A stretch of 47,106 nt of DNA from NCBI GenBank assembly GCA_019057815.1, contig JAHLWR010000027.1, positions 1 through 47,106 on the forward strand, read 5' to 3'. Made by a program: the position numbers and the translations under genes. This DNA comes from Candidatus Heimdallarchaeota archaeon. GTDB lineage: Archaea; Asgardarchaeota; Heimdallarchaeia; Heimdallarchaeales; Heimdallarchaeaceae. Positions 13,389-18,266 of this stretch are shown in pieces. The notes below the pieces were generated by a model. It did no database searches and was not told the origin of the DNA. It saw only the letters and a program-made list of their open reading frames with translations. Each line of letters starts with the position of its first letter. Position 1 is the first letter of the stretch.

Positions 13389-16300
13389 ATGAACAAAACT
13401 AGAAACACGTTATTTTTTCTTTTTATCCTTTTTTTTGTTGTCTTTTTATCTATAACTCGAGTTTACGAACCCTCCTCATTTTGTTTAAATTCTTCCTCTT
13501 CTCTCGGTCAAGATATAGTTTTCAACTATAATTATACTTCAAATAAAGAATTTTTTATTGTTGAACTTCCTTCTCTTGAGTTAAATAATTTTAACTCCTT
13601 AACTCTCTTCTTTACTGTTTACGGTTATTCTAGTTCTAGTGGCTCTTTAAAAGTTACCTTCATCTTTAATGAAACTGAAATCGTTTTTAATATTGATCAA
13701 GTATTCCAAGATGCTTTTGAATATAATCTATCTCAAATTTTTACTTTTCCTGAACATTTTAACGGTGCAATGAATGTAACTATCATTTGTGAAGGTCACA
13801 CTTCTTATTCTTATCAATCTGGTTCATTGCACATTTCTAGTCTTACGAAAGTCGAAGTTATCACTCCCCCAACATTATTTGAAAACTCTTCTTATTTACC
13901 TATAATCCCTTATTGGCTTAAATTTAAAGGAAGTACAAATTCAAAGGTTACTCGAAGTATACAAACTTATTTTTATGTTCTTAAAGGTTATGAAAAACTT
14001 AATTCTTCTCTTTCATTCGTTTCCAACGATTTTACAGCTTTTTCGAAATATATTGAAATTGAAGTTAATGGTGAAATAGTTCTATGCTACGATTTTCAAG
14101 AAAATAAGAAAAGTGTGGAAACCTTTCTCCTCCCTGTAATTATCGGGTTAAACTCCCTTTCTGTCCATTTTTCCTTGGAATATGGTCTAGGTGTAGTACT
14201 GATTTCAGATATCCAGCTCTTCGGAAACGTTTTATGTTTTCAAGATATTCTTCCAGATGATGTTTATGATTGGGTTTCGTGGGAAAGTAGTTATTTTGAG
14301 CACTCCTTTAACTTGTCCCCTTTTAAACCTACAGCAGTAATTTCTGATCAAGTGCTCCATTTTACTTTAGAGTATGTTTTTTTTGGAGCTGCTGTTTCCC
14401 CTTTTATCCAGTTTGAATTAAAATCAGGAATGAACATTATACACTCAGGGGAAATTTCAGAGGATGAACAATTTTTACAAAACACTCTTGAAATAGATTC
14501 TTTTACTACAACTTATCACGACGATTTAATTTTTAGAATCTCGGGAACAGCTGAAACCGCAGGCATGTTTTACATTCTTAACTCAAGTAAACTTGAGATA
14601 GAGCCTGTTCCTCAACTTAGAGATAATACCTCTATAGTTAGGGAACTAGTCTCTGAAGAAAGTTATGTTACACCTGATGATGATTCTTTAGTAGTAATCT
14701 TCTCTGACATCTTTTACGTCGATTCAACTTACTTGAGATTCAATACTACTCTTTCTTTTAATTTGTTTGATGAAGAGTATTCAGCTGTTAACCAGATAGA
14801 TGTACAAATGCGTTTTGATCATTACAACGTTATCGATGCAACCTTTAACAATGAAAAAGTATTTCATGAGACAACGCAAATTTCTCTACTTCGAGGTTTT
14901 TATGATGTAAAAGTAACTTTATCTATTTTAGGTAATGGTTTAACTGTTTTTTTGCATAACTTGGAATATTCTCTCTCTTCCCTCGAAAACAGTCAAAGTA
15001 ACACTGATCCTTTTGATAATCCAAGTTATACTAATCCGTTTACTAATTCAAGTATAGATGACAAGGTAAACCTTCTCCTAGCTCCTAAAAGAAAGGTCAT
15101 TTTAGGTATTGAATATGGTCTAGATTGTTTTGCGATAGTTGTTTTCTTCGCTCTTTGTTATCTTAAAAAGTGCAAACAAAGGAAGGAAACAGAAGAGAGC
15201 TCCGAAGAATTTGAAATTCAAATAACAGGTTTTAGGTCAAGAATGAGTAAATTCTCTAATATAGGTAGTTCTGTAAAACAATGGTCTCTCAAAATTTGGG
15301 ACTCTACAACTCGAACAGTACTACTGCCTCTTGCCATCGCTTATATCCCAGGAAAAATTTATGTTATACGCAGTTTTACAGAGGAAATAATCGTTTTAGC
15401 GGAAAAAGGTTATGAACATGCAATTTTCGCTTCGGGAGCTAATTGGTATAATTCTCTCATTTTTTCCCTTTATTTTTCTACAATCATATGGTTATGTGTA
15501 TTGATTCTCTTGACTAATTTTGTCTTTTATCAAGACCTTTATGGTTTTACTAAAATCTTTGGAGGGCTTACGTCTATCTGGTTATCTGTTTCATGGATAG
15601 GTACTTCTGCTTATATCAAGCTAAATAACAAGAGTTTTGATGTTTTTACCCCTATTCTATTCCTTGGAGTCTTTCTGAGTCTTTACGGTTTATCTATTGT
15701 CTTGGGTAAAATAGAGAAAAGAAGGAGAAATTTGGTTATGGAAAAGTTTTTCCGTACAGGTAGATTAACCGTGAAAAGCGTCTCTTCAGAGGATTCTAAA
15801 ACTAAAATTACCACAACAGAAGAAGAACTTTCAGATGAAGAAAAAACTAGGTTGAAGCGTAAGTTACTGAACATAATTATCGTTGACATAAACCCTAACC
15901 TTCCAGTCTCTTCAAAAAGATTAGCGGAAATTCTAGAAGCACCAATAGAGTTAACAGAAAAGTTTCTGCAAGAGATAACAAATCAATATCCAGCAATAGG
16001 AAAATATTATCCTATAGAACAAATTTATGTCAAAAAAGAGTATAAAAGTGAAGAATATCTAGATTTAAGGAATAAGGAAGCAGTAAAAGAGGTAAGAGAT
16101 TTAGGCAAGACAGAGGCGCAACAGTCTATATCCTTAACCAAAACTTCAGCAACAATAAGATTCCAAGAGATGTATGAGGATATAGAGGGAGAAGATGACA
16201 AACAAAAGAAGAAAAATCTAATGTTAAAACTGGAGTTGACACCCAAGGAAGCAACAGTATATCTAAGTTTCATCAAAAAAGGAGCAGGGGAAGAAGACAT

Positions 16301-18266: not shown

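Follow-up and report, generated by a model that had tools for sequence, protein, structure and literature searches.

The window analysed here is the whole stretch of 47,106 nucleotides of contig JAHLWR010000027.1 (assembly GCA_019057815.1) from a Candidatus Heimdallarchaeota archaeon of the family Heimdallarchaeaceae, to which named homologues also assign it. It carries a giant open reading frame that runs towards the 3' end of the 16S rRNA gene, the only one in the genome. As the preliminary description of this DNA had stated, the giant converges on the 16S terminator, and its stop codon lies 118 nt from the anti-SD of the 16S gene. The giant is organized as follows.

13389..18266, plus strand: giant open reading frame of 1,625 aa, in which a carrier (aa 1-890) is joined to a nuclease-like tail linked to 16S (aa 945-1625)
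13407..13463, plus strand: signal peptide or N-terminal TM segment, aa 7-25, from hydropathy
13464..15083, plus strand: ectodomain, aa 26-565, acidic, common to many Heimdallarchaeaceae paralogues
15096..15707, plus strand: TM cluster, aa 570-773, five helices probable from hydropathy and sequence
15852..16043, plus strand: wHTH-like segment, aa ~822-885, the end of the carrier; tails are exchanged just past it
16221..17258, plus strand: PD-(D/E)xK-like domain, aa 945-1290, with four invariant residues and an AF2 model
17259..18263, plus strand: C-terminal region, aa 1291-1625, present only in the 16S-linked family and possibly serving target recognition

The signal or TM segment, the ectodomain, the TM cluster and the wHTH-like segment, all proposed earlier, are borne out by hydropathy, sequons and conservation. 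The hydropathy peaks are located at aa 7, 570, 690 and 755, and two weaker hydrophobic segments near aa 645 and 725 can be read off the sequence. There are 12 N-glycosylation sequons in aa 26-565 versus 1 in aa 891-1625, an imbalance that fits an ectodomain outside and a tail inside. Together with the TM cluster and the hydropathy profile, it leads us to predict a cytoplasmic tail. The wHTH-like segment is kept across carriers and gives weak HTH matches (E 0.001 to Rep3 WH1 in a single member and E 0.027 to Crp HTH). Pfam and PADLOC searches with the giant open reading frame gave no match.

The carrier and the tail have different relatives. In the genome of the window, two paralogues of 1,043 and 2,496 aa align with aa 8-895 at 35% identity. 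The matches to aa 949-1229 are a giant of 4,628 aa and a soluble protein of 945 aa. Of the 30 genomes of the family, 28 encode the N-terminal carrier, in open frames of ~600 to 2,500 aa. A protein database search with the carrier N-terminus returned only the query, a failure of sensitivity, as the genome searches find many. Among the 16S-linked members, the wHTH segments are 93-100% identical while the tails are only 42-52% identical, and the trees of the ectodomain (carrier) and of the tail are mutually rejected (AU p 3e-4 and 1e-65). The tails appear to be under purifying selection, with a rough dN/dS of 0.15.

Is the tail a nuclease? In an alignment of 21 tail sequences (16-54% identity), the sole invariant columns are E979, G1016, D1018 and K1037, which is a PD-(D/E)xK pattern at the level of residues. 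The AF2 model of aa 945-1290 (pLDDT 86.5, pTM 0.88) places D1018 and E1035-x-K1037 on a beta-hairpin, after the helix bearing E979. That is, it has the arrangement of the PD-(D/E)xK superfamily, with E on a helix and D and (D/E)xK on adjacent strands. The motif previously read as D-x13-E-Y-K is present at aa 1016-1037, with the spacing corrected to D1018-x16-E1035 (or D1019-x15-E). Foldseek with two AF2 models gave no match at E<=0.001, and VIA with two models gave a best Z of 4.8, to unrelated proteins, the Z of 3.8 to HamA being a hint only. The Atlas shape search returned mainly PD-(D/E)xK families (HamA, Rpn, SduA, VRR-NUC and PDDEXK_1), with TM 0.24-0.32 by query; a feature search pointed to Mrr-type clusters, below 0.9. 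Pfam, PADLOC and PDB profile searches were blank. Consequently, the cytoplasmic PD-(D/E)xK-like motif of the preliminary description stands as far as the invariant E, D and K and their position on the modelled hairpin are concerned, while the nuclease fold is only suggested, no structure match being significant. Judged by motif conservation, the tail is probably a nuclease.

Among 400 genomes of the phylum, the tail domain is confined to Heimdallarchaeaceae, and no relatives were found on viral contigs or outside this family. This same domain, named GFD-ExK, also lies near the C-terminus of two aloposon-type giants, of 4,628 aa (L078:2058-15944, on contig C38 of G000, the genome of the window) and 2,965 aa (L072). 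In addition, a carrier-less GFD-ExK protein of 900 aa is encoded, in several genomes, 3' of the fumarate hydratase beta gene (L074:1925-4762, G000 C22; also L090-L092, L098 and L099); in G000 its gene lies between the fumarate hydratase beta and alpha genes.

The features at the 16S side of the locus are listed below.

18384..19894, minus strand: the single 16S rRNA gene, putative target
18267..18384, minus strand: 16S trailer and terminator, common to the converging giant
18397..18427, minus strand: hairpin mini-intron site c, 31 nt, located between the anti-SD and helix 45; the giant-less allele of the same genus lacks it
13266..18290 (approximate), no strand assigned: segment without counterpart in the same-genus genome G001, where a HEPN gene borders on the terminator and 16S has no intron

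The 16S and 23S genes are head to head (18384-24175). Further along, the window contains a DNA polymerase DP2 gene with a LAGLIDADG intein (29455-34422). No tRNA was detected in the window, nor beside the giants by ARAGORN.

Whether homologues stand consistently beside 16S 3' ends, a point raised in the preliminary description, can now be answered. All distinct loci with visible flank, from genomes and metagenomes, have the tail converging on the 16S 3' end (13/13). In every case the 16S-linked tail lies immediately next to 16S, and it is found nowhere else. The full and empty alleles expected in close relatives also occur, in the pairs G000/G001 and G007/G024, where the 16S genes are about 99% identical and the empty alleles are intronless. 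Decayed remnants are located upstream in G000, G007, G024 and L003. A fixed position by one target, with full and empty alleles and remnants, is the pattern of free-standing homing endonucleases.

In Heimdallarchaeaceae, the final 50 nt of 16S contain three separate hairpin mini-intron sites (18397-18427 in the window; L001-L006, L027-L029, L033, L064, L066, L069, L073, L177 and L178). At site c, a 31-nt insert relative to G001 forms a hairpin (z -4.8), and its removal restores the canonical 16S end; it is, by these sequence features, a BHB mini-intron with putative splicing. Every readable giant-adjacent 16S allele (12/12) has one or more mini-introns within its final 50 nt; the giant-less alleles comprise six without any and four or five with some. 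However, mini-introns are present in 4-5/6 giant-less members of the main genus. Therefore, the intron link rests largely on the two full/empty pairs, and the association between giant and 16S mini-introns may be called suggestive. One hypothesis was that intron c is required by tail clade 1 and not by clade 2; it agreed with the first ten loci, but L033, L177 and L178 contradict it. One mini-intron site splits the target of primer 1492R. One giant-bearing strain also has a 244-aa LAGLIDADG gene in a 16S intron at about position 460 (L002:6790-7524). True LAGLIDADG genes fill the slot by 16S in two genomes, one of them being HeimM2 (PMC8813620).

Upstream of the giant, the window holds an island with displaced copies of the 16S end. 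None of the following features is assigned a strand.

3670..4015: displaced copy of 347 nt, 97.4% identical, with the last 26-27 codons of the giant, terminator, anti-SD, intron c and 150 nt of 16S
about 2024..2180: displaced copy of 154 nt, 97.4% identical, with the last 6-7 codons of the giant, terminator and anti-SD
9356..9401: terminator remnant with flank as in G001
4187..13217: cargo between the repeats, namely a SIR2-STAND-TPR gene, HEPN-type genes and unknown open reading frames

It had been proposed that a copy of the end of the giant gene once lay by each 16S fragment. The last 26-27 and 6-7 codons are indeed kept; however, both copies are preceded by the same 49-bp flank (1974-2022 and 3610-3658), so that they probably stem from one already-deleted allele and are not independent witnesses. 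This 49-bp repeat, at the left junction of both copies, includes a dif-like arm and has no third copy in the genome. Intron c was already present in the allele from which the 3670-4015 copy came, and the break lies 150 nt inside 16S, a position not explained by a cut at the intron sites; the copy at about 2024-2180 breaks 1-4 nt upstream of the anti-SD. Overall, displaced 16S pieces extend from 1-9 nt upstream of the anti-SD up to 150 nt.

Displaced ends are not special to 16S. About 33 genes of G000 are accompanied, at no more than 30 kb, by a displaced copy of one of their ends (5' or 3'), mostly around small, often toxin-like cargo, and genomes that lack the giant have arrays of displaced 16S ends as well. 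Consequently, the repeats alone do not implicate a nuclease. The notion that displaced 16S ends prove nuclease action is weakened by this genome-wide control and these giant-less arrays, and a giant that is the signature gene or driver of the 16S repeat array, close to one option of the preliminary description, is not supported. The 16S repeats record one-sided homologous DNA uptake, and the displaced ends across the genome suggest that such uptake is frequent. Uptake alone poorly explains why each tail type is fixed to one gene end in different lineages while other cargo turns over.

Several other elements of the island were noted. On the left, C10 (1-3500) of G000 probably continues the island past the end of the window (1-900); C10 has three more terminator remnants and then synteny with G001. 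The SIR2-STAND-TPR gene (4187-7438) and other STAND NTPase genes are recurrent cargo in 16S islands (L026, L003). A family of 530-aa, seemingly all-helical genes occurs in 16S arrays and other hotspots (40015-41589 in the window, L064, L029, L030 and L077), in up to three tandem copies, each with terminator repeats; searches gave no family match and no recombinase match. The NosD gene at 2241-3590 was considered as the NosD that usually flanks the giant, but was not among the best matches.

Giants on the same carrier are found at other gene ends. Other tails abut aspS, rli, ppdk, glmS, hyuB and probable rpoA' (read from sequence), mostly at 15-130 nt; all named neighbours of carrier giants are housekeeping genes, and each tail type keeps its own neighbour gene across lineages. 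For example, a 1,470-aa tail converges on aspS (L139:7958-16415 in G012; L155 in G027), and a 920-aa tail converges on rli, the ABCE1 gene (L142:3988-11223 in G016; L211 in G006). Compared with giant-less relatives, the aspS beside the giant is 92-94% identical in its body versus 70-71% in its last 130 nt, and the displaced upstream piece is 82-84% identical. The foreign aspS end is common to another giant-bearing genome at 95%. For rli the corresponding values are 94% for the body, 71% for the end and 89% for the displaced piece, and the last 84 codons are displaced upstream of the giant. The break points lie about 130 nt (aspS) and 255 nt (rli) from the stop codon. Since the foreign end lies by the giant and the native-like end is displaced, the element arrives with its own version of the target end. 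Foreign ends are also kept without a giant, for aspS in G013 (none within the visible 931 nt) and for rli in G014 and G018, as is expected after decay of the giant.

The ppdk tail belongs to the GFD-ExK family (hhalign 97.8%). The glmS tail is different, with AbrB-like repeats and two invariant LAGLIDADG-type helices, the LAGLIDADG support being below the cut-off (Pfam E 0.004, hhalign E 0.08). It is convergent on glmS in 14/14 loci with glmS visible, with or without the carrier. This AbrB and double LAGLIDADG-like gene (L146, L148, L149 and L159-L173) is carrier-fused or free, and truncated in G000 and G001. Carrier giants also stand at ppdk (L143), probable rpoA' (L152), an aldo-keto reductase gene (L147), csl4 (L144) and, in divergent orientation, rpl10e (L140). 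A 2,496-aa carrier paralogue lies directly upstream of hydantoinase B (L076:5306-14457, G000 C16), whose displaced 5' fragment, 13 kb away, is near-identical over the last 60 nt.

The giants thus exhibit modular swapping, fixed neighbours, foreign gene ends, empty alleles and remnants. The family is real and its logic resembles that of known homing. These observations suggest that the target-linked giants are a selfish element tied to the cell membrane, by which the rival allele would be cut and its own kept. The reading that we prefer, holding it to be somewhat more probable than its negation, is that the giant combines a membrane carrier with a free-standing endonuclease of homing type, whose putative cleavage activity would serve intronless or collaborative homing. 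Between the two roles offered in the preliminary description, homing into rDNA and a receptor-coupled effector, the homing type fits best and the effector stays as a rival.

The cycle may be pictured as follows. Donor DNA would meet an unprotected chromosome, and the tail would cut the naive allele near the gene end. Repair would use the conserved gene body as homology, and the donor's protected end, the nuclease gene and flanking cargo would be copied in; for 16S, protection would come from at least one mini-intron within the final 50 nt. Either recombination within the carrier or an illegitimate join could create the far junction, leaving the old end displaced. After fixation, the nuclease gene would decay and the site could be re-invaded. 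The membrane anchor, the most speculative part, might retain the nuclease where DNA enters or cells touch, or keep it away from the chromosome until release. It should be noted that displaced gene ends are common without nucleases, so that one-sided homologous uptake can by itself explain the foreign ends.

A bolder version, which we consider rather unlikely, is a class of membrane-receptor-coupled, gene-specific nucleases with 16S, aspS, rli, glmS, ppdk and others as targets. Acting at cell contact or DNA exchange, they would cut an essential gene in partners without the linked recoded end. The target allele itself would be the immunity, and the outcome would be a cleave-and-rescue drive or kin exclusion.

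The homing-type reading has close parallels. Free-standing homing endonucleases of phage T4 (Seg and Mob) act by intronless or collaborative homing (PMC2988022). The likeness lies in an intergenic nuclease gene by a conserved target, patchy presence, co-conversion of flanks, and protection via polymorphism or a separate intron. However, the T4 enzymes are small soluble GIY-YIG or HNH proteins, whereas the giant, encoded on an archaeal chromosome, is a membrane protein of 1,625 aa that has an ectodomain and a tail of ~700 aa, and tails are swapped between carriers. I-Ssp6803I is a PD-(D/E)xK homing endonuclease, in which this motif class serves the recognition of a long site (PMC3384342); unlike the giant it is intron-encoded, small and tetrameric, and no sequence or fold match to the tail was obtained. 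Fungal mitochondrial free-standing HEGs (atp9, atp6 and cox1; PMC7487136) also lie by their targets with a duplicated or displaced end, but are organellar GIY-YIG or LAGLIDADG genes with no membrane carrier or multi-gene cargo. HeimM2 of Ca. Heimdallarchaeum (PMC8813620) shares the host family and the slot 3' of a single 16S, a homing endonuclease is present, and our analysis found a displaced 16S end there too. Its enzyme is a 206-aa soluble LAGLIDADG protein, and the giant, displaced ends and mini-introns are not described in that paper.

For the introns, Thermoproteales have hairpin-only BHB 16S introns that are co-converted by a neighbouring homing enzyme (PMC4496867). These too are short, at conserved 16S sites and clustered within a few nucleotides. 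The 13 archaeal 16S intron loci listed there end at 1391, whereas the three sites of Heimdallarchaeaceae are in the last 50 nt, and here the candidate enzyme lies outside the 16S gene. Our literature search found no membrane-anchored homing enzyme and no description of this target-linked giant family.

Could the giant rather be a contact-dependent toxin with target-recoding immunity? The ectodomain would sense or bind a neighbour or fusion partner and the tail would attack an essential gene or its RNA; carriers would be spared by their altered linked allele, and spread would come from killing non-carriers, not from gene conversion. Colicin E3 is a known case of attack on the 16S 3' end. A constant N-terminal carrier with recombinationally swapped, nuclease-like C-termini is indeed the layout of polymorphic toxins and aloposon giants (PMC6393860, PMC8813620), and the same domain ends secreted-type giants of 3,000-4,600 aa. 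The housekeeping neighbours with their foreign linked ends agree with this model, which needs no immunity gene. Unlike in those systems, what lies directly downstream of the tails is no cognate immunity gene but the putative target itself, 16S or a housekeeping gene, mostly 15-130 nt off, so that each tail type is tied to a gene end. Moreover, the tail is predicted to lie in the cytoplasm of the producing cell itself, no domain for delivery or processing was found in the giant, and the glmS and GFD-ExK tails also occur carrier-less beside their genes. Mature 16S RNA would not be protected by a spliced intron, so that DNA would need to be the target. Altogether, we regard a contact toxin as rather unlikely.

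Less likely again is a receptor-coupled defence (abortive-infection) nuclease riding an insertion hotspot, with the conserved gene ends as homology anchors for uptake. Any adjacent cargo would then arrive with a foreign end, and the generality of displaced ends and the 16S arrays without a giant agree with this. The island does include SIR2-STAND, HEPN, AbiV and Schlafen genes, and the weak shape similarity of the tail is best to HamA, a defence nuclease. However, other cargo varies freely, while the tail always touches 16S and each tail type has its own neighbour across lineages; PADLOC, in addition, gave no match.

We consider it improbable that the giant is a membrane-tethered protein, domesticated or non-catalytic, which binds DNA to anchor or regulate the locus next to it, as might be compared with WhiA, a LAGLIDADG-derived DNA-binding protein (PMC3384342). 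Purifying selection, a membrane anchor joined to a wHTH and the lack of a significant nuclease fold match would suit such a protein, but the invariant residues are the catalytic-type ones, and a core role is at odds with the patchy presence, the empty alleles and the repeated decay. An R2-like or integrase-based element in rDNA with the giant as signature gene, to which the rDNA linkage, the restriction-like motif and the variable-length gene tails by rRNA ends (resembling 5'-truncated insertions) might point, is very improbable, since the island open reading frames include no RT, integrase or transposase, no tyrosine or serine recombinase beside a 16S att site and no constant att length were found, none of the tails is on viral contigs, the giant is not located within the rRNA gene, the two remnants have their left flank in common and arrays occur without the giant; the R2 analogy of the preliminary description is therefore abandoned.

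If the homing-type reading is true, nucleases of homing type can be joined to surface receptors and directed at the ends of essential genes, a combination of which we found no report, and Heimdall archaea would exchange chromosomal DNA often enough for homing to pay. It would also account for the defence cargo piling up behind the single 16S gene, give a testable role to the nuclease-like tails of unexplained Asgard giant proteins, and predict a new family of long-site endonucleases whose targets could be read from the neighbouring gene. If the gene-specific nuclease class is true as well, natural cleave-and-rescue or kin exclusion would operate in close relatives of eukaryotes. The ends of aspS, rli and 16S are mosaic in Heimdallarchaeaceae, which matters for phylogeny.
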